Shown here one piece after another: positions 15,801 through 63,453 of a stretch of 64,000 bases of DNA (within the stretch, counting starts at the first letter, position 1; the number at the start of each line of letters is the position of its first letter). Origin of the DNA: a virus (taxonomy: Duplodnaviria; Caudoviricetes); the IMG/VR virus record IMGVR_UViG_3300025730_000007, positions 21,195-85,194 of that record. One strand, 5' to 3'. Below the pieces are notes generated by a model. That model ran no database searches. It saw nothing but the letters and a program-made list of their open reading frames with translations, and was not told the origin of the DNA. Position numbers and translations under genes: made by a program.

Positions 15801-16070
15801 GTGTTTGCGTGGTTGAAGGACAAGGCGTTTCTGTTGTTCGCCATAGCGGTCGAGCTATGGCGACAGCGCAATGAGCCCTATCCCCCACCCTCCACCCCGG
15901 CCATTGACGAGGACAACGCTGCTCCGCTCCAACCCATCATTCCCCCCGAGGGGTTGGCAATGAGGTGGAGGGAGGAAGCCCCAACCAAGCCCGATGTCAA
16001 CCCCAAGCCAGAGCCTCTGCGTGGTAGCCTTGCAGACCGCGTGGAGAAGGCGAGACGAGGCAATCAATGA
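15801..16070 (+). CDS. small protein with hydrophobic N-terminus
   Basis: GAGG RBS, GTG start; FLLFAIAVELW; ATGA overlap with the portal gene. Confidence 0.5.
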   Translation: MFAWLKDKAFLLFAIAVELWRQRNEPYPPPSTPAIDEDNAAPLQPIIPPEGLAMRWREEAPTKPDVNPKPEPLRGSLADRVEKARRGNQ

Positions 16071-18184
16071 ACGAGCCCCTAGCCGACATCATCCCCTTCA
16101 TGCAGGTCACTACCGACTTCAGCCGGTATGGCTTCAGCGACAACGCATCTAACTTCCGCGCAACGCGCGTCGTGGACAGTGTGCGGTGGAAGGAGATGGA
16201 GCGTTGGCAGCGATACTTTGAGTGCAAGCAACACGATGCCAAGCGCTACGACTTCGACGGGCGGCTCATGGCTCCTCGTGCTGTCGGTAGCGGGTATTCC
16301 CAACCGCTCATCAGCGCCGAGCGTGCGACGTGGTATGTCCCTCTGAGAGCGCGCAAGCCGTCTACCCCCTACCGCATCGGTCGCCGCATCGTGCTCAGTT
16401 TCACAAGCATGGTGTTCGGTGAGAGTCGTTGGCCCGATGTGGTGGTCAATGGGGACACTGACGCGCAGGAGTTCCTCAACGCGCTAGTCGAGGAGACTGG
16501 ACTACCGACCAAGATGATCCAACTCCGCAACATCGGCGGCTCGGTTGGCACGGCGGGACTGTCGTGGTGCTATCACAACGGGGTTCCCAACGTCGAAGTC
16601 CACAACGGCAAGGGCATCATTGTCCACGAGTGGGCAGACAGGGCGAAGCTACGCCCGAAGCATGTCACTGAGGTGTACCGCTACGAGCGTGACCATTGGG
16701 ATGCAAAGAGGCGTTCCTACGTGCGTGAGCTATGGTGGCATCGGCAGGACTGGACCGAGGTTGCCGACGTGGTGTTCAAGGAGTGCAAGGTCGAAGGCAA
16801 CAACGAGCCAAGGTGGGAGGTCGATGAGGAACTGACTACCATCCACAATGACGGCTTCTGCCACTTCGTCTACGTGCAGAACATCCCGCCCATTGACGGC
16901 GTGGACGGGTTGCCCGACTGCGACGGAGTGTGGGATCAGATGGACACGCTCGACATCCTGGTCAGTATCCTCGCCCGTGGTGGGGTACTCAATCTCGACC
17001 CGACACTGAAGCTCAAGATGGACCCCGAGCTTGTCGAGATGGCGTTCGTGCGCAAGGGTAGCGACAACGCGCTAGTGACCGGCGAGACGGGCGACGCGAG
17101 CTACATGGAACTCGCGGGGAGCAGCATCACGGCGGGTATCTCACTGATGCAGATGCTACGCGTGCAGACGTTGGAGAGTACGGAGTGTGTCATTCCCGAC
17201 CCCGACAAGGTTGCGGCGGCAGGAACGAGCAGCGTGGCACTCAAGATGGTCTATGCCCCCATGCTCTCCAAGTGCGACCTACTGCGTGACCAGTATGGCA
17301 AAGCTCTGCGCGAGCTACTGAGGCAGATGCTTGTCGTGGCCCAACGCATCTACAAGCCACGTCTCGAAACACGCAACGGGGAGGACGGCACTGACGAAGA
17401 GGTGGAGGTCACTGGCTTCATCCACCTCCAGCCGAAGGTGATTGTCGAGCCAGTGTTCGACGAGGACGGCGAGGAGACTGACGAAGAGTCTGTCACCATG
17501 GAGCCGCATACGCCGGGAACGTCGAGCTACATCGAACTCAGTTGGGGGCCATACTTCCGCCCGACTGCGGATGACCAGCAGAAGACGGTATCGACACTCA
17601 CACAAGGCACGGGGGGCAAGGCTGTTCTGTCGCAGAAGACTGCGGTGGAGTTGCTCGCGGGGCTCATCAGTCGCGACCCGTCGAAGATGCTCGACGAACT
17701 CTACAAGGAACAGGATGCCGAAGCCGAGAAGCGCAAGGCATTGATGGACAGCATGGGTGGGCAACCCGGCCAACCCGTCGAGCCGATGGAGCACGAGGAC
17801 GAGACTGAGGAGCAAGAGACTGAGACAGAGCAACCCCCGGTCCAGGCAAGCGAGGCCAAGGTGGAAGTCACTGGCGAGGAGCCAGTCGTCATCGACGAAG
17901 CCGGCCAAGCCCCACCCCCTCCAGCGAAGGAGGTCAGCGTGACACTGACTGCCACCGACGTCGCCAACATCGTCACCGTCAACGAGGCTCGCGCTTCGCA
18001 AGGGCTCGGGCCGTTGCTGCTCGCCAACGGGGAGCCCGACCCGGACGGCAACCTCATGGTCAGCGAGTTCAAGGCGAAGCGAGCCGCCATGATTGCGATG
18101 GTGGCAGGGGCCGAGCAGGGGCAAGCCCCCGGCGAGGAGCCACCCCCCGACCAAGGTGGGTTCGGGGGAGGCTTCGGAGGCTAA
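16067..18184 (+). CDS. portal protein
   Basis: 705 aa after terL; SPP1-like pattern (RIVLSFTSMVFG, FLNALVEE, FVYVQN, LDILVS) with an acidic C-terminal extension. Confidence 0.75.
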   Translation: MNEPLADIIPFMQVTTDFSRYGFSDNASNFRATRVVDSVRWKEMERWQRYFECKQHDAKRYDFDGRLMAPRAVGSGYSQPLISAERATWYVPLRARKPSTPYRIGRRIVLSFTSMVFGESRWPDVVVNGDTDAQEFLNALVEETGLPTKMIQLRNIGGSVGTAGLSWCYHNGVPNVEVHNGKGIIVHEWADRAKLRPKHVTEVYRYERDHWDAKRRSYVRELWWHRQDWTEVADVVFKECKVEGNNEPRWEVDEELTTIHNDGFCHFVYVQNIPPIDGVDGLPDCDGVWDQMDTLDILVSILARGGVLNLDPTLKLKMDPELVEMAFVRKGSDNALVTGETGDASYMELAGSSITAGISLMQMLRVQTLESTECVIPDPDKVAAAGTSSVALKMVYAPMLSKCDLLRDQYGKALRELLRQMLVVAQRIYKPRLETRNGEDGTDEEVEVTGFIHLQPKVIVEPVFDEDGEETDEESVTMEPHTPGTSSYIELSWGPYFRPTADDQQKTVSTLTQGTGGKAVLSQKTAVELLAGLISRDPSKMLDELYKEQDAEAEKRKALMDSMGGQPGQPVEPMEHEDETEEQETETEQPPVQASEAKVEVTGEEPVVIDEAGQAPPPPAKEVSVTLTATDVANIVTVNEARASQGLGPLLLANGEPDPDGNLMVSEFKAKRAAMIAMVAGAEQGQAPGEEPPPDQGGFGGGFGG

Positions 18185-18187
18185 CCC

Positions 18188-20275
18188 ATGGCCGGCCCCA
18201 AGCGGCCCACCAGAGGCTCGGCAGGCTCCCCGGCCCCCCAACCCCCGGCCAAGCCTGCCAAGCCTCCTAGCCCCCGAACACGAGCCGGCAAGCCGGCGAA
18301 GCCGGGAGGGGTGGCAACCCCTGCCACGGTTCGCACGGAGCAAGCCAAGGAGCGTGTCATTCGGGCGACCATTCTCAATCGTCAGCAAGCGTTCACCTAT
18401 GCCAACCAAGTCGGAGTAGACCGGGTGGTCAGTGTGCTACGTCGGGCCATGGCTGACTTGGAGCTACGCCTCGCCACGGTTCCCCGCTCGCTCATTGTCG
18501 AGGGGGCATTCACCCCGACTGCCATGCGGGCGACAATGCATCAGATCGAAGACCTCATTGCCGAGTTGGTTGTGCCAGGGGTGAGGGGCGCAGTCATCGA
18601 CAGCAAGCGAGTCGCCGCTGCTCTAGGCAAGGTCGACGGGTTGCGCAATCTGGTCGAGATGGATACCCGCTTTGCTGGCATCGTCTCGACCGCGCGTCTC
18701 GGCATTGCCTCCCAGCTTGACCCGTACGGCAAGGGGCCGAACGCCTCAGTGCTCAGACGCCTTGCTACCGAGTACCCCAAGGAGGCTCCCGGCAAGGGCA
18801 TCATGGAGCGCTATGGCATGGAGGTGATTGGCAAGTTTGAGGAGCGGCTCATGGTGGCGACCATCAGCGGCAAGCCGTGGACTGAGGTACGGGAAGACCT
18901 CATTAGCGAGTCTCAGTGGTTGGAGGAGAGCCCCATGTTCTGGGCTCAACGTATCGTTCGCACGGAATGCTTTACAGGGGACTCAATCGTGTCGTCTGCG
19001 ATGGTGAGGGCAGTCTACAGACGGTGGTATGAGGGGGAGATTGTGAAAGTTAGAACTCGTGGTGGACGCGAGTTCTCCGCAACCCCTAATCACCCGATGC
19101 TGACGGAACGAGGGTGGCTTGCGGCGCATCAACTCAAGGTGGGAGATAACTTGGTCTGCCACTCGTGGAATGAGGACTTTGGTTCTGCGGGAGATCAAGA
19201 TGTAGCAGGAAGACCAGCCACGATGGCTGAGGTATTCAATGCGGCGGCAACAATAGGGGTCATTGAACGGAGACGTGGAGGAAAGCCAGACTTCCACGGC
19301 GATGGGATGGAGGGCAATGTCAATATTGCGCGTCCCACAAGGCTCTTGGGGGTGGGGGAATTCACCCCTGTCACGGAGCCATTGTGTCACAAGGTCTTCA
19401 CCCCAACCGACAAGTCTGCTCTTGCCTTCTGCCCCTCGTGTGGTGGCTTGCTCCCTGTCGATGAGACTTCTCACTTGTGCGGGACTCCTGAGTTCAACGC
19501 CATTGCGTTCGAGTCTTGCGGTGATGGCTCTGTTGGAGACACCCAAGCTGGAAGCGATGTGGCTCAAGGGTTCCCCGGACTCGTAGCGAGTCACTATGCT
19601 ACGCTCGTCGAGGGGGATGGTTCGGGGGTGTCCAATGACGGCAAAGCGGTTGGTTGCGGCTTCACTTCTAGTTCGCAAGAGCCCCTCAACAATGAGCGCC
19701 TTTCTGAGACGGAACCTACCAATCCCGCATTGAAGGCTGGCGGAATCGAGGCTCTCCCCGTTGGCGTAGAGGTGGATAGCATTGTTGAGATTGTCATCGA
19801 GGACTTTGCGGGTCATGTCTACAACCTTACAACTCCGCACGGGTACTATGCAATCAATGGTATCTACACCGGCAATTGTATGGGAGCATACAACCGAAGC
19901 ATCCTTGAGAACGGCGAGGAGGCCAACGACATCGTGGGCGGCGACATGGTGAAGATCCTTGTCGCCGGCTTCGACGACCGTACGGGGTGGGATAGCTATC
20001 AGGTTCACGGACAGATACGTAGGCTGGACGAGCCGTTTGAGTGGGTGACTAAGAACGGTGAGACTATTGCTTACATGACTCCACCCAATCGGCCCAACGA
20101 CCGGGAGGTGGTAGTCTTCCACCGCGTTGCGTGGGAGATACCCGAGGAGCTTCAGCCCGTGCCCGACGCGGTGTACGAGGCGCGGTTTGCGGAGCAGAAC
20201 AAGAAGGGCAGTCCACCCGAGCGTCCGAAGATGACTACTGTTCCGCTTGGATTGTTTGGCAAGGAGAGCGCGTGA
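18188..20275 (+). CDS. minor head protein (Mu gpF / SPP1 gp7-like), intein-containing
   Basis: Follows the portal; RIVRTE, DDRT...HG...PF and PPNRPNDR motifs of the gpF family, interrupted by an intein. Confidence 0.75.
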   Translation: MAGPKRPTRGSAGSPAPQPPAKPAKPPSPRTRAGKPAKPGGVATPATVRTEQAKERVIRATILNRQQAFTYANQVGVDRVVSVLRRAMADLELRLATVPRSLIVEGAFTPTAMRATMHQIEDLIAELVVPGVRGAVIDSKRVAAALGKVDGLRNLVEMDTRFAGIVSTARLGIASQLDPYGKGPNASVLRRLATEYPKEAPGKGIMERYGMEVIGKFEERLMVATISGKPWTEVREDLISESQWLEESPMFWAQRIVRTECFTGDSIVSSAMVRAVYRRWYEGEIVKVRTRGGREFSATPNHPMLTERGWLAAHQLKVGDNLVCHSWNEDFGSAGDQDVAGRPATMAEVFNAAATIGVIERRRGGKPDFHGDGMEGNVNIARPTRLLGVGEFTPVTEPLCHKVFTPTDKSALAFCPSCGGLLPVDETSHLCGTPEFNAIAFESCGDGSVGDTQAGSDVAQGFPGLVASHYATLVEGDGSGVSNDGKAVGCGFTSSSQEPLNNERLSETEPTNPALKAGGIEALPVGVEVDSIVEIVIEDFAGHVYNLTTPHGYYAINGIYTGNCMGAYNRSILENGEEANDIVGGDMVKILVAGFDDRTGWDSYQVHGQIRRLDEPFEWVTKNGETIAYMTPPNRPNDREVVVFHRVAWEIPEELQPVPDAVYEARFAEQNKKGSPPERPKMTTVPLGLFGKESA
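18968..19876 (+). mobile_element. intein, 303 aa
   Basis: Block A CFTGDSIV, block B TPNHP, block F HVYNLTT, terminal TGN followed by Cys(+1); splicing restores RTE-CMGAYN. Confidence 0.88.
18983..19816 (-). CDS. antisense gene nested in the intein: tandem HTH plus PD-(D/E)xK/Vsr-like nuclease (putative homing endonuclease)
   Basis: ATG 19816 preceded by GGAG/TAAGG; two HTH units (LYANGESLDSAS..., RYESGEPLSHIASSLGVSNRAITARLERNG); nuclease-like EDLVTQWL..NIDIALHPIAVEV..RIEYLSHRGW. Confidence 0.72.
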   Translation of the reverse strand: MTRKVLDDNLNNAIHLYANGESLDSASLQCGIGRFRLRKALIVEGLLRTRSEAATNRFAVIGHPRTIPLDERSIVTRYESGEPLSHIASSLGVSNRAITARLERNGVELRSPAQVRSLIDREQATTRGAEGKSRLVGWGEDLVTQWLRDRGEFPHPQEPCGTRNIDIALHPIAVEVWLSSTSPFNDPYCCRRIEYLSHRGWSSCYILISRRTKVLIPRVADQVISHLELMRRKPPSFRQHRVIRGCGELASTTSSNFHNLPLIPPSVDCPHHRRRHD

Positions 20276-20359
20276 CACCGCAACACGTATTGCGGTGGAG
20301 TTGAACCAACCCCGACACCCTGATAGGCTTGCACTATGGCAAAGAAAGAAGGAGGCTAT

Positions 20360-20503
20360 ATGGGCTTTGACAAGCTCACTGAGAGCCTCAAAGAAAAGGG
20401 CCACGACGAGGACAGCGCGAAGGCACTCGCCGCTTGGATTGGGCGGAAGAAGTATGGTGCGAGTCAGATGGCGCAGATGGCGCAAGCTGGCAAGAAGGGG
20501 TGA
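20360..20503 (+). CDS. small hypothetical protein (47 aa)
   Basis: GGAGG RBS; GHDEDSAKALAAWIGRKKYG; read by hand. Confidence 0.6.
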   Translation: MGFDKLTESLKEKGHDEDSAKALAAWIGRKKYGASQMAQMAQAGKKG

Positions 20504-21142: not shown

Positions 21143-21556
21143 ATGGGCCAGACGCGACTCGATGCCAGCCTGAGCGCTGGACCGCCGAATGCAGGGGAGT
21201 CGGTCTTCCCTGGCACGACTGCGAACATCCCTGTCAACCTCACTCCCAATCCCAAGAACTGGCAACACGCGACCGGCGTGCTCACCCGCGTTGTCAACGT
21301 GGCGACTCCCGCTTGGCTCACCCTCGACGGGGTGGGCGCGACTGCCACCATCAGCGAGTGCGGCTTGCTCTACTTCCGGTCGAGTGCACCCCTCAATCTG
21401 CGGATCACCCAGACGGTTGCCGGGGTAGGCTCCGTCGTAACCGAACACCGAGTCTATGGCTTGTTCATCTGGGAGCCCCCGGAGAGCGAGCCCCTCACTC
21501 TGCTTGAAGTGCAAGGCAACGGAACAATCGAATACTTCGCTCAGGGCCAGCGCTGA
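21143..21556 (+). CDS. putative virion structural protein
   Basis: GAGG RBS; beta-rich composition; head module. Confidence 0.55.
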   Translation: MGQTRLDASLSAGPPNAGESVFPGTTANIPVNLTPNPKNWQHATGVLTRVVNVATPAWLTLDGVGATATISECGLLYFRSSAPLNLRITQTVAGVGSVVTEHRVYGLFIWEPPESEPLTLLEVQGNGTIEYFAQGQR

Positions 21557-23269: not shown

Positions 23270-23425
23270 TACCCCCCTACGCACAAGCCCTTGACCTCGC
23301 AATCTGTGCGGGAGTATCTTATCCGCTACGCCTCAAACCTTTCCCTCCTACGCTCACGACAGCGGTAACAGTCGGCACTCTGGGGAAGACGGCAATCAAC
23401 CGTTCAGTCTCTTGGAGGAAACACC

Positions 23426-24817
23426 ATGCCACTCGTCGTCGGAATCCCGCCCGTCATTCTCAATCTCATTCAGGAAGGTGTCTTGGAGCGCGCATTCCAC
23501 GACGCCTTGTACCCCAAGCTCCAGTTCCGAGCGGAGGCGCTCGCGGAGGAATGGCCGGCGAACATCGGTACTGAGATGTTCATGACTCGGCCCGGACTCC
23601 TCACCCCGATCACGGAACCCCTCCCGGTCGGCACCGATCCCGTTCCGCAGCAACTCAGCTACGAGCAATGGAGTGCAAGCCTGAAGCGCTACAGCGGGAC
23701 CATCGACACTCACATGCCGACGAGCGTGGTGTCGAACGCCAACCTCTTCCTCAGCAACATCAATCAGCTTGGGCTCCAAGCGGGTCAGTCGGTCAACCGG
23801 CTCCCGCGCAATGCCCTGTTCAAGTCGTACCTGAGCGGGCAGACGCTCACGACGGCGGCAATCGCTGCGGTGGATACGCAGATCCAAGTCGCCTCGTGCA
23901 ACGGCTTCTTCGACGTCATTCTGCTCGGCACGAATGCTCGTCCAGAAGCCGTGTCTCCGACTCGCCCGTTGCCCATCACCATCGGAGTCGGCGGCGGAGC
24001 CGTCCAGCGCAACGTCATCGGCGTTGCTCCCGTGGATGCGACTGACCCCTACGGACCGGGGACTCTGTTCCTCGATGCGGCGGTCGGCGCAGTCTTCCCC
24101 GCGCGTACGCCGGTTCGCAGTGCCTACGCTCCTCGCGTGGTCAGGGCGGGAGGTGGCGCGAGCATCGACGCCATCACCGGAGCGGACATCTTCACGTTCC
24201 AACTCATCATCAATGCCATGTCCATCCTGCGGTCGAACAACGTTCCTCCGCACTCCGACGGCTTCTACCATTGCCACATGAGTCCGCTGTCGAACGCGCA
24301 GATCTTCAGCGACGTTGCGTGGCAGCGACTCCACACCGGAACCCCGGATCACATCCGGTACAAGGAGGGGTGGATCGGGCAGATCGCGCGCAACGCGTTC
24401 TTCGAGAACAACGAGATTCCGAACCAGTCCAACTCGGGAGCACTGACACCGACCGGCGCGAATGCTCAGTACGCTCGCGGCATCGGCGGCGAAGTGGTCA
24501 ATGAAGGTGGCGTGGAGATCGGGCGTCTCATCATGACCGGCAAGGGCTCCATCTACGAGAAGTATCTCGACGAGATGAAGTACGTGACCGAGGCGGGAAT
24601 GCAGGGCAAGGTCGGCGAGTTCGACGTGGTGCAGAACGGCATCCAGGTCGGCACCGAGCGCATCCGTCTCTACCTCCGTTCTCCGCAGGACCGACTCGGC
24701 GACATCGTGTCCTCGACGTGGAGCATCTCGACGGACTTCCCCGTGCCGTCCGACATCAGCGGCGGAAGTGGCCCCGAGCGCTACAAGAGAGCCGTAGTCA
24801 TCGAGCATGCCCTATAA
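23426..24817 (+). CDS. major capsid protein (N4 gp56-like)
   Basis: 463 aa after the scaffold; LRSNNVPP..GFYHCHMSP..IFSD..W..EGWIGQI pattern. Confidence 0.8.
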   Translation: MPLVVGIPPVILNLIQEGVLERAFHDALYPKLQFRAEALAEEWPANIGTEMFMTRPGLLTPITEPLPVGTDPVPQQLSYEQWSASLKRYSGTIDTHMPTSVVSNANLFLSNINQLGLQAGQSVNRLPRNALFKSYLSGQTLTTAAIAAVDTQIQVASCNGFFDVILLGTNARPEAVSPTRPLPITIGVGGGAVQRNVIGVAPVDATDPYGPGTLFLDAAVGAVFPARTPVRSAYAPRVVRAGGGASIDAITGADIFTFQLIINAMSILRSNNVPPHSDGFYHCHMSPLSNAQIFSDVAWQRLHTGTPDHIRYKEGWIGQIARNAFFENNEIPNQSNSGALTPTGANAQYARGIGGEVVNEGGVEIGRLIMTGKGSIYEKYLDEMKYVTEAGMQGKVGEFDVVQNGIQVGTERIRLYLRSPQDRLGDIVSSTWSISTDFPVPSDISGGSGPERYKRAVVIEHAL

Positions 24818-28059: not shown

Positions 28060-28140
28060 TACCGCAACACGTATTGCGGCAGGGTTAGACAACCACAGAC
28101 GCTAGAGGTATTCTGCCCCTCGCGACCCCGGAGGATTACA

Positions 28141-30345
28141 ATGTCCGTCTACATTCGACGCTTCACGGAAGATCCAGGGCTCGAAGTCTTGCTCGACATC
28201 GAGTCCGTCAACATCATTGACCTGGAGCCTCCCGAGGCGTTCGCAGGCATCGGCACGGGGACTGCCATCCTTGTCGCAGAGTTCGAGGATGGCCCCTACA
28301 ACGAAGTCACTGAGGTGTTCGGTCCCTCCGACCTCGTGCAGACGTTCGGTGAGTTCGGCTACACCTACGACGGCGTGAAGGGGAACAACCCGTGCGCCAG
28401 AAGCCGCAAGGCCGACGCGGCAATCACCCCCGAGTATTGGAACGGCAACGGCTTCGTCCATCTCAATGGCAAGAAGTTCCGCCGTCTCATTCTCGTGCGC
28501 GTCGACACGAGTGTCGGCTACGTGGCATTCACCCGGCTCGCCGCACTCACTGGTCTGTTCAAGCCGACGTATGACCTGGAGCCGGGGCAGATTCTCACCG
28601 TCCAGACCGACCTCGTTGCCGCAACCAACGTCACCTTCTTGGCGACGGCGGCAACGGTGACGGGTGTCGGTGGGGTATTCGCTGGAGTGGTTGCGGGCGA
28701 CTACATCGACCTCGCGTACGATGGGAACCCGACCGTACGCGTCACTTTCCAAGCCGGCGACAACAGCATTGCCGGGGTGGTCGCGCGTATCAATCTCGCG
28801 TTCGGATTCACCTTCGCAGCGGACAGCGGTGGAGAGCTTCAGTTGACTGGCCGGCGACGTGGCAACGCGGGCGAGGTCAGCATCGTCGGAGGCTCTGGCA
28901 CCATCGTGACCACGTTCGGTCATGTGGTCGGCGTCAACGGGGGTGGCGGCAACGTCGATGACATCGACGCGGTGACGGTTGCCGAGGTCAATGCGTTGGT
29001 CGCAGCGGCAGTCCCCACCCTTGCGGTCATGCGGGACTACGACCAGAACATCGTCATCTACAACACCACGACAACCGGGGTGGCAGAGGTGGAGGTGGTC
29101 AGTGCCACGACTACCGCTCTCGACTTCGGCTTCCCGCTCGACACGACTGGCGAGCAAGCGACTGCCGATGAGGACGTGAACATCCCCGCTGGAACACGCG
29201 TTCGCAACGCGGGAGCAACGGAGTGGGTGACTACCGAGTCCATCGTGGCGAGTGCCGCTGAGTACGACGGGTGGACTGCCAAGGTGCGTCACGCCCTCGA
29301 CGACGGCACGGGGGTCGCTGCTCCGGTCGGCACGGTCAACGTCATTCCGTTCCCCGTTGCCGGCGCAATCTTCGCAGTCACCAACCCACTCCCCCTCAGT
29401 GCGGCGAAGACTGAGTTGGAGATTGACGCGGCGTACTATGCCGCAATCCAAACCACGCTCGACCTCAACACGGTTGCGCGTGAAGCGAACTTCATCTGGG
29501 CCGCACGGCAGTCCAACATCTGCCGGCGAGGCGTACGCGAGAATGCGATTCTCGCCAGCGAGCGTGGATGCTTCGGGCGGATGTGCGCCATCCGGCCCCC
29601 CATCGGAACGACTCGTGCAGTCGCCAAGGGCAACGCTGAGCCGGGGATTGGCGCATACCGTCACGACCGAGTGATGTATACCTTCCCCGGCGTGTCGACC
29701 TACGTCCCCGCCATCGCCCTCAAGGGGACTGCGGGTGGGGCCGGCTTCACCGCGAACGGCGTTGTCAACCAAGGAGCAGACGGCTTCGCGGTGAGTGTCT
29801 GTTGCCGGCTTCCGAGCGAGGAGAACCCCGGCCAACTGACGACCTTCATGGACGCGGTGCAAGGGTTGGAGTCCGGTGCCGAGTACGTCGGGTGGACCAT
29901 CGACGACTACAAGGCATTCAAGAAGAAGGGAATCATGACCCCTCGCATGGACGACGGGGTGGCAATCTTCCAGTCCGGTGTGACCAGCGTGGACCCAGGA
30001 ACCTACCCGGCCAAGGTGCGTGTCAGTCGCCGTCGAATGGCCGATGAGATTCAGGACTCGTTGGCGAAGATCAGCAAGGGCTACGGCAAGCGACTGAGCA
30101 GCAAGCAACGCCGTCAGCAATTCGTGCTGGACTGCAAAGCATTCATGGAGTCGTTGCTGTCGCCCAACGACCCCACGAAGCAACGAATCGACTCGTACTC
30201 GATTGACCCCAAGAGCGGCAACACCACAACGAGCCTCGCGGCGGGAGCGTACTATGTCTTCGTGAAAGCGAAGACGTATCCGTCACTCGACGCCATCGTG
30301 CTCCAGACCGAGATCGGTGAGAACGTCACCATCAGTGAGGTGTGA
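28141..30345 (+). CDS. contractile tail sheath protein
   Basis: 734 aa; N-terminal PGL..ID, C-terminal RRRMADEIQDSL...YYVFVKAKTYPSLDAIVL typical of sheath C-termini. Confidence 0.8.
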   Translation: MSVYIRRFTEDPGLEVLLDIESVNIIDLEPPEAFAGIGTGTAILVAEFEDGPYNEVTEVFGPSDLVQTFGEFGYTYDGVKGNNPCARSRKADAAITPEYWNGNGFVHLNGKKFRRLILVRVDTSVGYVAFTRLAALTGLFKPTYDLEPGQILTVQTDLVAATNVTFLATAATVTGVGGVFAGVVAGDYIDLAYDGNPTVRVTFQAGDNSIAGVVARINLAFGFTFAADSGGELQLTGRRRGNAGEVSIVGGSGTIVTTFGHVVGVNGGGGNVDDIDAVTVAEVNALVAAAVPTLAVMRDYDQNIVIYNTTTTGVAEVEVVSATTTALDFGFPLDTTGEQATADEDVNIPAGTRVRNAGATEWVTTESIVASAAEYDGWTAKVRHALDDGTGVAAPVGTVNVIPFPVAGAIFAVTNPLPLSAAKTELEIDAAYYAAIQTTLDLNTVAREANFIWAARQSNICRRGVRENAILASERGCFGRMCAIRPPIGTTRAVAKGNAEPGIGAYRHDRVMYTFPGVSTYVPAIALKGTAGGAGFTANGVVNQGADGFAVSVCCRLPSEENPGQLTTFMDAVQGLESGAEYVGWTIDDYKAFKKKGIMTPRMDDGVAIFQSGVTSVDPGTYPAKVRVSRRRMADEIQDSLAKISKGYGKRLSSKQRRQQFVLDCKAFMESLLSPNDPTKQRIDSYSIDPKSGNTTTSLAAGAYYVFVKAKTYPSLDAIVLQTEIGENVTISEV

Positions 30346-58545: not shown

Positions 58546-58815
58546 ATGAAAACTGCAAAGAGCAAGAAGTCCAGTCTCCCCCGGCCCCCCAAGGGCAAGG
58601 CGAAGGAGGCTTGGGATGCGGGTGTCGACTATGCCCACGACCTCATTGCGTGGCACCCCGACTCGAACGAATACTCGCTTGTGAGCAAGCTCATGGGCGG
58701 AGTCCTCGACCTCTGCGGCGGAGACGAGTATGCCGCTGATTGGGCGTTCGACGGCGGGAAGTCCGTCATCCACGCTCACTTCGCCGCAAAGGAAGCGCTC
58801 AATGAACTCGGGTGA
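58546..58815 (+). CDS. hypothetical protein
   Basis: GAGGA RBS. Confidence 0.6.
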   Translation: MKTAKSKKSSLPRPPKGKAKEAWDAGVDYAHDLIAWHPDSNEYSLVSKLMGGVLDLCGGDEYAADWAFDGGKSVIHAHFAAKEALNELG

Positions 58816-59053
58816 CAAGGTGGTTCTGGGCAAGGGGTGCAAGGGCATCGGGCTTCGCAAGGGGCAAGTGCTCAAGGTGCTCAAGCTGGTCGGCATTGAC
58901 CAGGGTGGCACGACCATTCTGTTCGAGATGGTTCCGCAGGGGCGCATCCGCCAACTCTACAACCGCAGGACTCCCCCCACGGTCGCCAACGCAACCTCGT
59001 TGTGGCTCCACAATGGCGACCCCACCTTGCGCGTTCTGGCGCACGTCATCTGA
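58802..59053 (+). CDS. hypothetical protein (SH3/KOW-like start)
   Basis: GDKVVLGKG; tiled ORF. Confidence 0.5.
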   Translation: MNSGDKVVLGKGCKGIGLRKGQVLKVLKLVGIDQGGTTILFEMVPQGRIRQLYNRRTPPTVANATSLWLHNGDPTLRVLAHVI

Positions 59054-59114
59054 GCCGTTGCACCGCAACACGTATTGCGGCATAAGGGCAAGGGGCCGAC
59101 CCCAAGTTCGGCCC

Positions 59115-59178
59115 CACAAGCAAGCGCGCGAGACGGTATTCCCCACCCCCTCCTGGCCGTCTCGCGCGCTTGCTTGTG
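59115..59178. repeat. 22-bp perfect inverted repeat with 20-nt spacer
   Basis: CACAAGCAAGCGCGCGAGACGG (59115..59136) and CCGTCTCGCGCGCTTGCTTGTG (59157..59178). Confidence 0.92.
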
Positions 59179-59231
59179 CGGTAGTCGCACAAGCCAACGG
59201 GGCAGAAGTCCCCTTCACCAAGGAGTGGCAG

Positions 59232-61373
59232 ATGACCACTGAGACACCGACTAGGGCGGAGCTTCGACGAAAGGCGAAGCAAGCCCTCAATCCCGAAACA
59301 ATCCTCCAGGGTGCCAACCCGGAGCAAGCGGTCGCCATCCAGCACGGCGAGGGGCCGCTTGGCGTGTTCGCAGGGGCCGGAAGTGGCAAGACCCGCGTGC
59401 TCTGCGCCAGGATGGCGTTCCTGGTCAGTATGGGCGCCAAGCCCGAACGCATCCTCGCCGTGACGTTCTCCAAGAAAGCCGCTGTCGAGATGGAGGAGCG
59501 CGCGCGGAAGATGGGAGTGCTCGCCGCCCGAGTCGGCACTTGGCACTCCCTCGCGTTGCAGATTCTCCGCGAGGAGCACGCTATCGACGAGTGGGCAATC
59601 GACGACAAGGACCGCGCCAAGGTGATCCTCAAGGCCAACGTGCTCGGGTACAAGGGCATGAATTGGCGGGACGCCGACATCGGTGTGGTGTCGGGCTACA
59701 TCTCATTCTGCAAGTCGCAACTCTGGGGGCCGGAGAGCGACGGAGCGCGCGAGTATGCCAAGGGCGAGCGCCGGCTCGTCGAGGCATACCAACGTTACGA
59801 GGCGGAGCTTCTCGACAACCGGCTCCTCACGTTCGATTGCATGCTCTGCAAAGCGGTTGACCTCCTGCGCGTCGAGGACACTCGCCTTCGTTGGGCCGCT
59901 CGCTGGGACTACGTGCTTCAGGATGAGGCGCAGGACGCCAACCCCGCGCAGATGGCAATCGCCGAAGCGCTTGCCCGCGACCACCGGAACTACATGGTAG
60001 TCGGCGACCCGGCGCAGAGCATCTACGGATGGCGAGGCTCCAAGCCCGAGTACGTCATGGAGTTCGAGAAGTCGTGGCCGGGGGCCAAGGTGGTGACGAT
60101 GAATCGGAACTACCGTTGCGGCTCTGCCGTGGTTGCCGTCGCAAACAAGGCAATCAGTCCCGCCGCAATGCGCCTCCCCGCCGACCTCGTGGCCGAGGGT
60201 GGTTGGCAGGGTGGCGTGAGCTTCTGGCGCGAGGCGGACCTCGACGGCGAGGCAACGCGTATCGCCAGCATCGTGCAGGAGAACGCGAGGGCCGGCCAAC
60301 CGTACGAGGCTCACACCGTTCTCTTCCGCACTAACGCTCAGTCCCGCGCGTTGGAAGAGGCGTTCCTGGCCGAGAAGATCCCCTATGTGGTTGTCGGGGG
60401 AACGAGCTTCTACGAGCGCAAGGAGGTCAAGGACTTGCTTGCCTACCTCCGCACGGCAATCGGGCGCGAGTTGGAGCAGAACGTGCGTCGCTGCGTCAAT
60501 GCCCCCTTCCGCTACATCGGCGCAGTCACGGTCGACAAGCTCCTTAGCGCGTTGGGGGCTCGCCACGGAGACCTCGTGGGGGCCATTGGAGACATCAGCG
60601 GCGAACTCCAGCGTAGGCAAGTGTCCAGCCTGACTGACTGGCTCGATGCGGTCGGCAACGTGGACCAGGGCGCCAAGCGGCTCGCCGCACTCACCGACAA
60701 TCGCACTGACACCGACCACGTTGGAACGGTGCTCGACGCGCTCGTGCGTGAGGTCGGATATGTCGAGTGGCTCAAGCGCGACCAGGGTGAAGAGGGGCTT
60801 GATAGCTCCCACGTTGCCAACGTGAAGGAGCTTGTGCGGGTTGCCTCCAGGTTCGCTACGGTGGAGTCGTTCCTCGACTTCATCGACGAGACAATCGCCA
60901 AGTCCAAGGAAGCCAAGCAAGGGGCCGGTGAGGGGCGCGTGCTACTGATGAGCATCCACCGGAGCAAGGGGTTGGAGTGGCCGTTCGTGTTCGTGTGCGG
61001 TTGCTCCGAGGGTATCCTCCCCCACCCTCGCGGGGATGCCGAGGAGGAGCGCCGGTTGTTCTACGTGGCAGTCACTCGCGCGGCTCAACACGCGTACCTG
61101 ACCAGTCCAGCATCGTTGGCATTGAGGGCCGGCGTCAAAGCGGTAGGTCCGTCGCAGTTCGTCGAGGAAGTCATGGACCTTCTCGCTGTCGGGGAGTTCG
61201 AAGTTCGCCGCTCAGGTGGTTGCCGGCAATGCCCCCAAGCCCCCTCGCAAGGGGCGCAAGGTGGCTCCCAAGCCGGCCAAGGCACCCCCGGCCCCCAAGC
61301 CGGCCCCCGAGGCTCCCAAGGGGGACTTGATGGGCCGCATCTTTGCAGCGGCAAAGGGGGTCAAGAGGAATGA
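59232..61373 (+). CDS. uvrD: UvrD/PcrA-like superfamily 1 helicase
   Basis: AGAGSGKT, VTFSKKAA, TWHS, DEAQD, VGDPAQSIYGWRG, NYR, LFRTN, SIHRSKGLEW and EERRLFYVAVTRA motifs. Confidence 0.93.
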   Translation: MTTETPTRAELRRKAKQALNPETILQGANPEQAVAIQHGEGPLGVFAGAGSGKTRVLCARMAFLVSMGAKPERILAVTFSKKAAVEMEERARKMGVLAARVGTWHSLALQILREEHAIDEWAIDDKDRAKVILKANVLGYKGMNWRDADIGVVSGYISFCKSQLWGPESDGAREYAKGERRLVEAYQRYEAELLDNRLLTFDCMLCKAVDLLRVEDTRLRWAARWDYVLQDEAQDANPAQMAIAEALARDHRNYMVVGDPAQSIYGWRGSKPEYVMEFEKSWPGAKVVTMNRNYRCGSAVVAVANKAISPAAMRLPADLVAEGGWQGGVSFWREADLDGEATRIASIVQENARAGQPYEAHTVLFRTNAQSRALEEAFLAEKIPYVVVGGTSFYERKEVKDLLAYLRTAIGRELEQNVRRCVNAPFRYIGAVTVDKLLSALGARHGDLVGAIGDISGELQRRQVSSLTDWLDAVGNVDQGAKRLAALTDNRTDTDHVGTVLDALVREVGYVEWLKRDQGEEGLDSSHVANVKELVRVASRFATVESFLDFIDETIAKSKEAKQGAGEGRVLLMSIHRSKGLEWPFVFVCGCSEGILPHPRGDAEEERRLFYVAVTRAAQHAYLTSPASLALRAGVKAVGPSQFVEEVMDLLAVGEFEVRRSGGCRQCPQAPSQGAQGGSQAGQGTPGPQAGPRGSQGGLDGPHLCSGKGGQEE

Positions 61374-62077: not shown

Positions 62078-62149
62078 GCGTTGTCAAAGCCGACCGTCTA
62101 TGGCACGGTCGGCGTTCGTGTTTGAGCCCTAGCAGGGCAAGGAGGCCAC

Positions 62150-63328
62150 ATGGCACGCAAAGCAACGAAACCGGAACGAATCTATGGGGTACTGAGCAGC
62201 AAGGTCAACGAGGAGACGGTGACGGAGGCGCTGATCGCGTTGGAGCTTCCCGCCGATGGAATCGTCGAAGACAAGGTTGGCCGGCTCGTGGCGCACTTCC
62301 GCGAGCATACCGCTGCCGACAAGCTCGCCAAGTGCGATGTCTGCGAGGGCAAGTCGGACGCCGAACTCGACGCTTGCCCCTACTGCGGAGTCGGGGATGA
62401 GGCACCCCCGGAGGACGCACCGGAGGACGCACCGGAGGACGCACCGGAGGACGCACCGGAGGACGCACCGGAGGACGCACCGGAGGACGCACCCCCGGAG
62501 GTCGAAGACGAGCCCGTTGAGCCCCCTGCGGAGCCTGCCAAGGGGGCCAAGGGCAAGGCCGAGGGCAGCAAGGCCGACAAGCCGGCCAAGGCGGAACTCG
62601 TCACGGTCGACGTGGACCCGCGCTTCAGCGTGAAGGACTTGGATGCAGCGGTCGAGCGCGCCAACCAACTGACGCGCGCGGGAGCCGTGGTTGCGTACGA
62701 GTTGGGTCTGCAACTGAAGCAGATCCACACCGACCAACTCTGGAAGCTCCGCAAGGGTGAGGACGGGGCTCCTACGTACAAGTCGTTCGAGGCGTTCGTC
62801 TTCGCGGAGTTGGAGATCAGCCGGCAGACAGCGTACGAGCAGATCGACGTGAGTGCGAACTACGAGAAGTCGGATGTCGAACGACTCGGCTACAAGAAGC
62901 TCGCGTTGCTGCTCAAAGCCCCCGAGGAGAAGCGGCCCGAACTGAAGGAGAAGGCTGAGAAGGGGGCGAGCTACCGCGAACTGACCGCCGAGGTGAAGAA
63001 CGCTCGCGCGGAGGCCGGGACGGGCAAGCGCAACACGGGTCGCAAGGAGACGCCGCAAGGCAAGGCCAACCCCTCTGGCCGGGGTGGCAAGGGCAGCGAG
63101 GTCAACACCATCACCGTCGCAAGCCTGCTCGGCAAGCAGACCGTGCAGATGTTCAAGTCGGTCAAGAAGACGGGCTCCAAGGAACTGGTCCCCGCTACCT
63201 CGTTGGATGACGATCCTTGGGCATGGGTGGAACTCCGCAACGGAGTCGTCGAGGTGTTCCACGTCGCCAAGACCGCCAAGGGGCTCGTGCTCCAGATCAA
63301 GCGCGAGCGCCGCAAGGCGGGGAAGTAG
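62150..63328 (+). CDS. zinc-ribbon plus DUF3102-like putative DNA-binding protein
   Basis: CDVC..CPYC; YELGLQLKQI..YKSFEAFVFAELEISRQTAYEQI..LGYKKL. Confidence 0.55.
   Translation: MARKATKPERIYGVLSSKVNEETVTEALIALELPADGIVEDKVGRLVAHFREHTAADKLAKCDVCEGKSDAELDACPYCGVGDEAPPEDAPEDAPEDAPEDAPEDAPEDAPEDAPPEVEDEPVEPPAEPAKGAKGKAEGSKADKPAKAELVTVDVDPRFSVKDLDAAVERANQLTRAGAVVAYELGLQLKQIHTDQLWKLRKGEDGAPTYKSFEAFVFAELEISRQTAYEQIDVSANYEKSDVERLGYKKLALLLKAPEEKRPELKEKAEKGASYRELTAEVKNARAEAGTGKRNTGRKETPQGKANPSGRGGKGSEVNTITVASLLGKQTVQMFKSVKKTGSKELVPATSLDDDPWAWVELRNGVVEVFHVAKTAKGLVLQIKRERRKAGK
62408..62491 (+). repeat. 12-bp in-frame tandem repeat CCGGAGGACGCA x7 (PEDA)
   Basis: Seven exact units counted. Confidence 0.93.
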
Positions 63329-63453
63329 CCTCTCCGTTCCCACGTTCCCACCGTTGCCGGCTCCCCCTTGCTACCCTTGCCACGGGACTGACCCCTTCGG
63401 GCCGCAACACGTATTGCGGCACGAGGGGGTCTTTACTCGTTTGGAGGCCACCC

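Follow-up and report, generated by a model that had tools for sequence, protein, structure and literature searches.

A probable Vsr-like homing endonuclease gene nested antisense, codon-for-codon, within an intein of a phage head-protein gene

In a 64,000-nucleotide stretch of viral DNA (Duplodnaviria; Caudoviricetes; positions 21,195 to 85,194 of IMG/VR record IMGVR_UViG_3300025730_000007; hereafter the window), a MuF-like phage head gene very probably carries a contiguous class-1 intein, on whose opposite strand a homing-endonuclease gene is nested codon-for-codon. Comparison with related sequences shows, as far as patterns of substitution can be read, that the antisense frame is selected in the centre of the intein and the sense frame at both of its ends, and that both frames are selected, at interleaved positions, over the ~110 codons of the nuclease catalytic domain. 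The best reading of this arrangement, and one that the initial annotation of the same DNA had already proposed, would be a two-strand selfish element, because a selected antisense nuclease gene lies nested in a contiguous intein and because intein-less alleles exist.

Results

The intein and its boundaries

The insert at 18968-19876 is an intein, with splicing predicted from its sequence blocks and from the avoidance of stop codons described below. We call it an intein because it has the splicing blocks, superposes on the Hedgehog/intein (HINT) fold and is exactly absent from three homologues. The host gene, exteins and splicing lobes are laid out as follows, where pLDDT is the local distance difference test score predicted for an AlphaFold2 (AF2) model and HTH stands for helix-turn-helix.

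18188-20275, + strand: host gene, 695 amino acids; open reading frame (ORF) for the precursor of a head morphogenesis (minor capsid) protein of MuF/SPP1 gp7-like type
18188-18967, + strand: N-extein, ending ...RIVRTE, delimited by alignment with the intein-less allele P0172
18968-19876, + strand: intein, 303 amino acids (precursor residues 261-563), with the class-1 features Cys1, TPNH, GHVYNL and a terminal Asn, then Cys
19877-20275, + strand: C-extein, starting CMGAYNRS and including the stop codon, from the ORF and the intein-less alignment
18968-19165, + strand: N-terminal splicing lobe of the intein, residues 1-66, with pLDDT >90 over residues 1-60, dropping towards 66
19766-19876, + strand: C-terminal splicing lobe of the intein, residues 267-303, blocks F and G, with pLDDT >90
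19484-19801, + strand: sense-frame linker, intein residues 173-278, opposite both HTH units of the nuclease, with pLDDT <50 for residues 173-264

The insert begins with Cys1, carries the block B motif TPNH at residues 39-42 and the block F motif GHVYNL, and ends in Asn303 with a Cys at position +1. These class-1 motifs are kept across 34 aligned inteins, and the penultimate residue is Gly, not His. The Pfam family Intein_splicing (PF14890) matches the insert with an E-value of 2.5e-7 and 31.1 bits, a score under the gathering cut-off of 35.8. The AF2 model of the intein, built on 34 relatives, superposes on the Mtu RecA mini-intein (Z 12.5, root-mean-square deviation [rmsd] 1.4, 106 residues aligned) and on the Hedgehog autoprocessing domain (Z 12.0). 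The initial annotation had likewise recognized a 303-amino-acid intein with intact splicing blocks in a gpF-like gene.

The antisense gene and its embedded signals

The nuclease gene and the signals that would start and stop its translation occupy the minus strand of the intein.

18983-19816, - strand: antisense nuclease gene, 277 amino acids and a TGA stop, sharing the codon register of the intein exactly; identified from homologues and an AF2 model of mean pLDDT 83.3
19814-19828, - strand: start ATG with a Shine-Dalgarno-like AAGG, the ATG lying opposite CAT, the His codon of block F, and the AAGG opposite the Asn-Leu codons
18983-18985, - strand: antisense stop TGA, the complement of the intein Ser6 codon TCA

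An exact reverse-complement frame of 277 amino acids, running from ATG 19816 to TGA 18983, had been described in the initial annotation, and translation confirms it; codon boundaries are common to the intein and nuclease frames. The signals also match that description, the start being complementary to the His of block F and the stop to Ser6, with AAGG at 8 nucleotides upstream of the ATG and GGAG farther upstream. Among 71 distinct loci, the antisense start lies at the block F His in 69. Over 68 loci, that His codon is CAT in 53, where the start becomes ATG, and CAC in 15, where it becomes GTG; CAT accounts for 33% of the His codons in the exteins, and its excess at block F has p = 3e-14. In most loci GAGG or AAGG stands 8 nucleotides upstream of the antisense start, derived from the Asn-Leu codons. 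In 68 of the 71 loci the antisense stop falls inside intein codons 1-25; Leu2 supplies it in 34, through a rare CTA or TTA codon. With its start and ribosome-binding site in block F and its stop in block A, the nuclease gene is thus fully enclosed by the mobile unit.

An open antisense frame proves nothing in itself here, because the window is GC-rich (61% GC) and the same frame remains open for 606 amino acids from an upstream TTG, far into the C-extein; a caveat to this effect in the initial annotation was well placed. One could accordingly hold that the antisense ORF encodes no protein and that GC-rich codon usage has left a mirror frame open by chance. Besides the 606-codon frame, this explanation can point to further long mirrored ORF pairs in the window (23396-24817, 28102-30345, 58799-61373 and 62129-63343), which are probably the usual mirror frames of GC-rich DNA. 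However, the antisense protein has homologues of 25-58% identity with a conserved start, its confident model matches Vsr-like nucleases and HTH domains, the variable codon position in the centre of the intein is the antisense third position, and the frame is open even where the exteins have only 43-48% GC. The fold match, the codon-position pattern and the low-GC loci already refute an accidental frame, which we consider extremely improbable.

Selection changes strand along the intein

Between the window and the related locus L009 (86% identical), differences at sense codon positions 1/2/3 number 45/30/120 and 9/4/52 in the exteins and 41/8/20 in the centre of the intein, where they amount to 47 amino-acid changes in the sense frame and 21 in the antisense frame. 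Across 35 sequences, variability peaks at position 3 in intein residues 1-60 and over the final ~25 residues, and in residues 61-278 it peaks at position 1, which is the antisense wobble position; the sign changes at about residues 60 and 278, and the result is identical under sense-guided and antisense-guided alignments. Mean pairwise identities (sense/antisense) are 0.57/0.43 for residues 1-60, 0.36/0.48 for residues 61-172, 0.19/0.32 for residues 173-278 and 0.59/0.31 for residues 279-303. The reversal of codon-position variability in the intein centre means that the antisense frame is selected there. Together with its homologues and predicted fold, this marks the antisense ORF as a genuine gene under selection, encoding a predicted HTH-HTH-Vsr-like nuclease. 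Residues 173-278 contain one conserved column that is sense-only and 11 that are antisense-only, and over this linker the sense frame appears only to stay open.

The host frame is kept open

Both frames prove to be open in ~112 loci, with the antisense frame selected in the intein centre. In every usable locus, ~112 in all, the in-register frame opposite the nuclease gene contains 0 stops over ~234 nuclease codons; in every full-length locus the other two host-strand frames contain 1-27 stops. The host frame can acquire a stop only through the codons TTA, CTA or TCA in the nuclease gene. In the 71 distinct nuclease genes these codons were observed 0 times against ~269 expected, with each locus's own exteins as the codon-usage reference, and even in loci with 43-48% GC exteins, where 6-14 would be expected per gene, none is present. 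The openness of the host frame is, judged from this codon usage, selected, and the avoidance of TTA, CTA and TCA implies that ribosomes read through the insert.

This result also bears on the idea of a genuine nuclease gene inside a fractured host gene, with an untranslated centre and two intein halves that splice in trans. Such an arrangement has precedent, in that Vsr-like homing-endonuclease genes (HEGs) were first described between split-intein halves (PMC2677866), and gene callers do split the host gene around the nuclease ORF in the related loci L001 and L004. The uninterrupted host frame of the ~112 loci and the missing ~269 stop-making codons speak against it. As stop avoidance is sensible only with ribosome read-through, the fractured layout is excluded on this argument, and we regard it as highly improbable.

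Fold and active site of the predicted nuclease

The model of the antisense protein resolves into three domains.

19685-19798, - strand: HTH unit 1, nuclease residues 7-44; three model helices, with profile matches to 2lvs, the Sleeping Beauty PAI subdomain and resolvase HTHs
19505-19606, - strand: HTH unit 2, nuclease residues 71-104; weak matches to Pfam HTH_28, HTH_7 and HTH_23, and to phrog_1303 (5e-6)
19055-19417, - strand: Vsr-like/PD-(D/E)xK-type nuclease domain, residues 134-254, from structural matches, including a beta hairpin at 240-253

We found 24 homologues of the antisense protein that are of similar length and 25-58% identical, several of them with PF18741 and HTH families, and a larger library, searched with the first 223 residues of the nuclease as the query, yielded 918 representatives at E <=1e-3. 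The AF2 model (21 aligned sequences) shows a pair of three-helix units together with a long helix, a core of alpha-beta-beta-beta-alpha-beta-alpha order and a hairpin at the C terminus, and the hairpin at residues 240-253 is the mirror of intein block B. With an exhaustive structural aligner, the top matches are Vsr (1cw0, Z 10.0 over 111 residues, covering residues 134-254), 3hrl, which is DUF559-like (Z 9.1), and the I-Bth0305I catalytic domain (3r3p_B, Z 9.0, rmsd 3.1, 91 residues aligned). Foldseek of the whole nuclease model against the PDB returned nothing at E <=0.001; its match to 3r3p_B had a probability of 0.99 and an E-value of 0.029. Resolvase-type HTH domains match residues 64-108 in the exhaustive structural comparison, HTH unit 2 aligning with Tn3 resolvase (Z 7.2) and GcrA (Z 7.1), and the sequence profile of the nuclease matches double-HTH DNA binders. 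Thus, structure prediction bears out the two HTH units and the Vsr-like nuclease that had been read from sequence motifs in the initial annotation. The residues E140, Q157, N164, E175 and W201 are invariant, and D166 is at least 90% conserved.

A zone constrained on both strands

The part of the intein that lies opposite the nuclease catalytic domain differs from the linker in carrying conserved sense residues of its own.

19148-19483, both strands: doubly constrained zone, intein residues 61-172 opposite nuclease residues 223-112 (catalytic domain), defined by conserved columns
19289-19306, + strand: sense motif DFHGDG, facing PIAVEV, the strand of the nuclease in which the invariant Glu175 lies

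Across intein residues 61-172, 20 conserved columns are antisense-only, nine sense-only and eight both. The HINT superpositions align only ~106 residues, and the zone therefore lies outside the canonical HINT core. The DFHGDG codons GAY TTC CAC GGC GAY are found in 63 of the 71 distinct loci, reaching down to ~25% identity. Through this motif, six wobble positions in a row are fixed in the nuclease gene, so that the wobble bases of its Ala-Val-Glu codons, which lie on the catalytic strand exactly across from the invariant sense Phe-His-Gly, are frozen; any synonymous change in these three codons would alter the sense Phe, His or Gly. At nearby ordinary conserved residues of the nuclease the wobble is free, with a diversity of 0.65-0.77. 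The sense residues I86, F90, E100, D119, G130, F132, C155 and C158 behave like DFHGDG. The supposition in the initial annotation that the sense frame only has to stay open must therefore be revised, as residues 61-172 hold conserved residues that belong to the sense frame.

A further sense-frame pattern, FCxxC...C.C at intein residues 154-171, shows partial conservation in that frame. The AF2 model of the sense protein has pLDDT values of 72-89 for residues 80-170, but we have set these aside as evidence of a fold, since co-variation from the nuclease on the opposite strand could produce them; an ESM Atlas look-up of sense residues 76-175 gave no usable match. We tentatively suggest, while holding it to be somewhat less probable than the contrary, that over ~110 codons the nuclease catalytic domain and a structured, needed part of the intein may both be under purifying selection, which would be deep two-strand dual coding and not a passive spacer. 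If this is true, DFHGDG, and perhaps the sense residues Cys155 and Cys158, would be needed for splicing or folding in this intein family.

Empty alleles and the question of mobility

Three homologous proteins (P0172, P0173 and P0175) lack exactly the precursor residues 261-563, and P0172 is 95% identical over the exteins; an intein-less target is thus present in the same phage lineage. The empty allele encoding P0172, at locus L118, reads RTE directly followed by SMGAYN, so that the residue past the junction is Ser there and Cys in the occupied alleles. Its junction, ...CGCACTGAG immediately followed by TCGATGGGG..., is a candidate cleavage target. At the nucleotide level (L118:469-1641), the N-extein is 95% identical to the window, and the C-extein is 96% identical to L009 and ~82% identical to the window. 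L118 is therefore mosaic, switching from one to the other where the intein is inserted, a pattern that fits recombination at this site in either direction. A scan of IMG/VR with the N-extein returned only three known loci and no empty allele; the allele came from the protein search.

A separate observation comes from the wastewater library run X1, in which an 846-nucleotide contig is identical to the intein core (window 19019-19864). On either side of this core the library has pieces of two kinds, the first almost the same as the window and the second 10-12% different, and the depths of the two C-side pieces (8.44 and 5.31) add up to the 13.7 of the core. In these short contigs, this looks like one intein sequence common to two diverged phage variants, hinting at recent transfer.

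The module in related loci

Scans by protein alignment gave 80 viral loci (of 208) and 27 genomic loci, and the relatives come from contigs of Chloroflexota, Pseudomonadota, Armatimonadota and actinobacteria. Prophage regions of Ornatilinea apprima P3M-1 (L092), Microbispora rosea ATCC 12950 (L103) and Rhizobium sp. 2MFCol3.1 (L111) are among the carriers. Both the insertion site and the host gene differ among the loci that carry the intein-nuclease module. In L001, L004 and L007, a homologue of the nuclease lies antisense within a MuF gene, with the host frame running through. In L007 (1654-4665, - strand), one MuF-like gene of 1003 amino acids holds two inteins of the family at different sites, each with its own antisense HTH-nuclease ORF (344 and 326 amino acids) and with every frame open.

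Automatic gene calls either split the MuF gene around the nuclease ORF, as at L001 (2563-2928 and 3001-3864) and L004 (2446-2964, 3001-3852 and 4186-4647), or place a spurious ORF opposite the C-extein. Because the automatic calls split the MuF gene, the host gene of such elements is often recorded in pieces in public collections.

Among 130 representatives with the core motif, no truly free-standing relative of the nuclease could be established. The block B mirror is found by strict pattern in 98 of the 130, most of the others having it in diverged form or being truncated, and two short relatives with one HTH, when checked, were both nested in MuF inteins.

Observations that weigh against the proposed element

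Several points count against, or qualify, the reading of this locus as a two-strand element. First, by a by-eye alignment, the subfamily of the window lacks the active-site His of Vsr/EDxHD nucleases: the His expected ~7 residues past the Glu is a Ser in this subfamily (VEVWLSSTSP) and is present in distant members (GGxWH). The window nuclease also has His198 where the consensus has Asp, and cleavage activity is therefore not assured. Second, the pattern used to scan the collections (E/Q-H/Y-R/W-VIRGxG) is itself the mirror of intein block B, which biases the sample to intein-nested copies; it leaves the openness of the other 230 codons unforced. Third, no sigma-70-like promoter was detected on either strand in 18700-20400, which matters for the minus strand in particular, although the promoter type of the host may differ. 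Finally, contigs from RNA libraries (six runs) span portions of 17.6-21.0 kb, among them 19612-19885 from a metatranscriptome, but they give no strand, start or level, and they are evidence neither for nor against an antisense transcript. None of these contigs skips the intein, a result confined to contigs of the six runs, in which carry-over of DNA is possible.

A further alternative is that the antisense protein is real but is not, or is no longer, a homing endonuclease, being perhaps a DNA-binding regulator or a domesticated nuclease in an intein that is inherited vertically. Apart from the apparent lack of the general-base His, it can be said in favour of this view that intein and exteins have diverged to about the same degree between the window and L009, giving no sign of recent transfer between these two, and that inheritance looks vertical for most of the VSR-like cases described elsewhere (bioRxiv 10.1101/2025.01.02.630785). 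However, an empty allele exists in a near-identical phage, with a mosaic exactly at the site; the module occupies several insertion sites and several host genes, and occurs twice in one gene of L007; the nuclease gene is confined within the borders of the intein; and the acidic residues E140, D166 and E175 are conserved. We therefore think a non-homing role unlikely.

The host gene and its surroundings

The product of the host gene matches phrog_15127 ('head protein'), and the gene lies immediately downstream of a portal-like gene (16067-18184). The window's own exteins matched no Pfam family in a Pfam search; PF04233 (Phage_Mu_F), together with PF14890, was found in the host-protein homologues P0186-P0194. 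Outside the window, the host-protein homologue P0179 (1118 amino acids) is a MuF protein fused to a toxin-like domain of the ADP-ribosyltransferase families PF03496 and PF01129.

Discussion

A two-strand selfish element, if that is what this locus represents, would work as follows. The host gene would be translated straight across the insert, and the two HINT lobes (residues 1-66 and 267-303) would splice the insert out of the head protein. A separate message from the minus strand would give rise to a free protein of 277 amino acids, with two HTH units and a Vsr-like nuclease domain. This free nuclease would cut the intein-less site, RTE followed by Ser or Cys, in related phages, and repair would then copy the whole element in.

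The consequences are partly practical. Annotation pipelines miss or mis-call antisense nuclease genes of this kind, and a simple rule, a HINT-flanked insert with an in-register antisense HTH-Vsr ORF, would retrieve hundreds of hidden genes. The locus is also a clean natural system in which two proteins share one stretch of DNA, and one for which an empty target allele has been identified.

Among known systems, canonical bifunctional inteins such as PI-SceI and PI-PfuI resemble the present one in carrying a mobility module between the N and C lobes of HINT and in occupying a conserved site of an essential gene. However, their LAGLIDADG or HNH endonuclease is in frame, whereas the nuclease described here lies outside the intein polypeptide, which instead has a loop of ~200 residues translated from the mirror frame of the nuclease gene. 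The phrase 'complementary strand' in a paper on the PRP8 intein turned out to refer to GenBank coordinates only.

Out-of-frame arrangements have been reported for LAGLIDADG endonucleases. The dnaX intein of Synechocystis has an out-of-frame LAGLIDADG endonuclease, encoded in a +2 ORF on the same strand, and in that overlap there is purifying selection on the endonuclease frame and relaxed selection on the intein frame (Phillips et al., 2026, bioRxiv 10.64898/2026.09.14.751524). Out-of-frame or antisense LAGLIDADG inteins are cited in bioRxiv 10.1101/2025.01.02.630785 as Gorbalenya 1998 and Gogarten 2002, the antisense ones as Gorbalenya 1998. These systems share with ours an endonuclease frame that differs from that of the intein, but they involve another nuclease family and other hosts.

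Closer in the nuclease itself are the fractured genes, in which a Vsr-like (EDxHD) HEG is free-standing between split-intein halves (Dassa et al., 2009, PMC2677866) and of which I-Bth0305I is the prototype enzyme (Taylor et al., 2011, PMC3239194). There, as here, an intein-associated Vsr-like core is preceded by DNA-binding modules. However, in the fractured genes the HEG is on the same strand, the halves are translated separately and the overlap is only 6-69 bp (PMC2677866), whereas the HEG described here is on the opposite strand and fully overlapped, the intein is contiguous, and the host frame is uninterrupted both in the window and in ~112 relatives. The predicted enzyme also differs from I-Bth0305I in that its HTHs are of the resolvase or transposase type and that no clear EDxHD His can be seen in the subfamily of the window.

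The closest match is with the full inteins of actinophages that carry anti-sense VSR-like homing endonucleases (HENs), described by Gosselin, Arsenault and Gogarten (bioRxiv 10.1101/2025.01.02.630785) in genes for DNA polymerase, minor capsid protein (MuF/gp7), terminase and thymidylate synthase. The architecture is therefore already in print, contrary to the initial annotation, which knew of no description of it, and the present locus opens no new category. In both cases a contiguous intein in a phage minor capsid gene contains a separate antisense HEN ORF; the predicted HEN matches 1CW0 (Z 10.0 here, and 10.6 over residues 144-267 in the preprint) and has extra N-terminal helices; and the HEN region, when translated in sense, yields no recognisable fold. 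The architecture, the type of host gene and the fold match suggest that the two are related. The copy described here differs in coming from a metagenomic phage of wastewater or sludge type and not from PhagesDB. The text of the preprint makes no mention of codon register, of TTA/CTA/TCA avoidance, of a start and Shine-Dalgarno sequence in block F or of sense-specific constraint in the overlap. To that work, the present analysis adds the spread of these elements beyond actinophages, a figure for stop avoidance, start and stop signals embedded in the splicing blocks, an empty allele, and constraint in the overlap that is specific to the sense strand.

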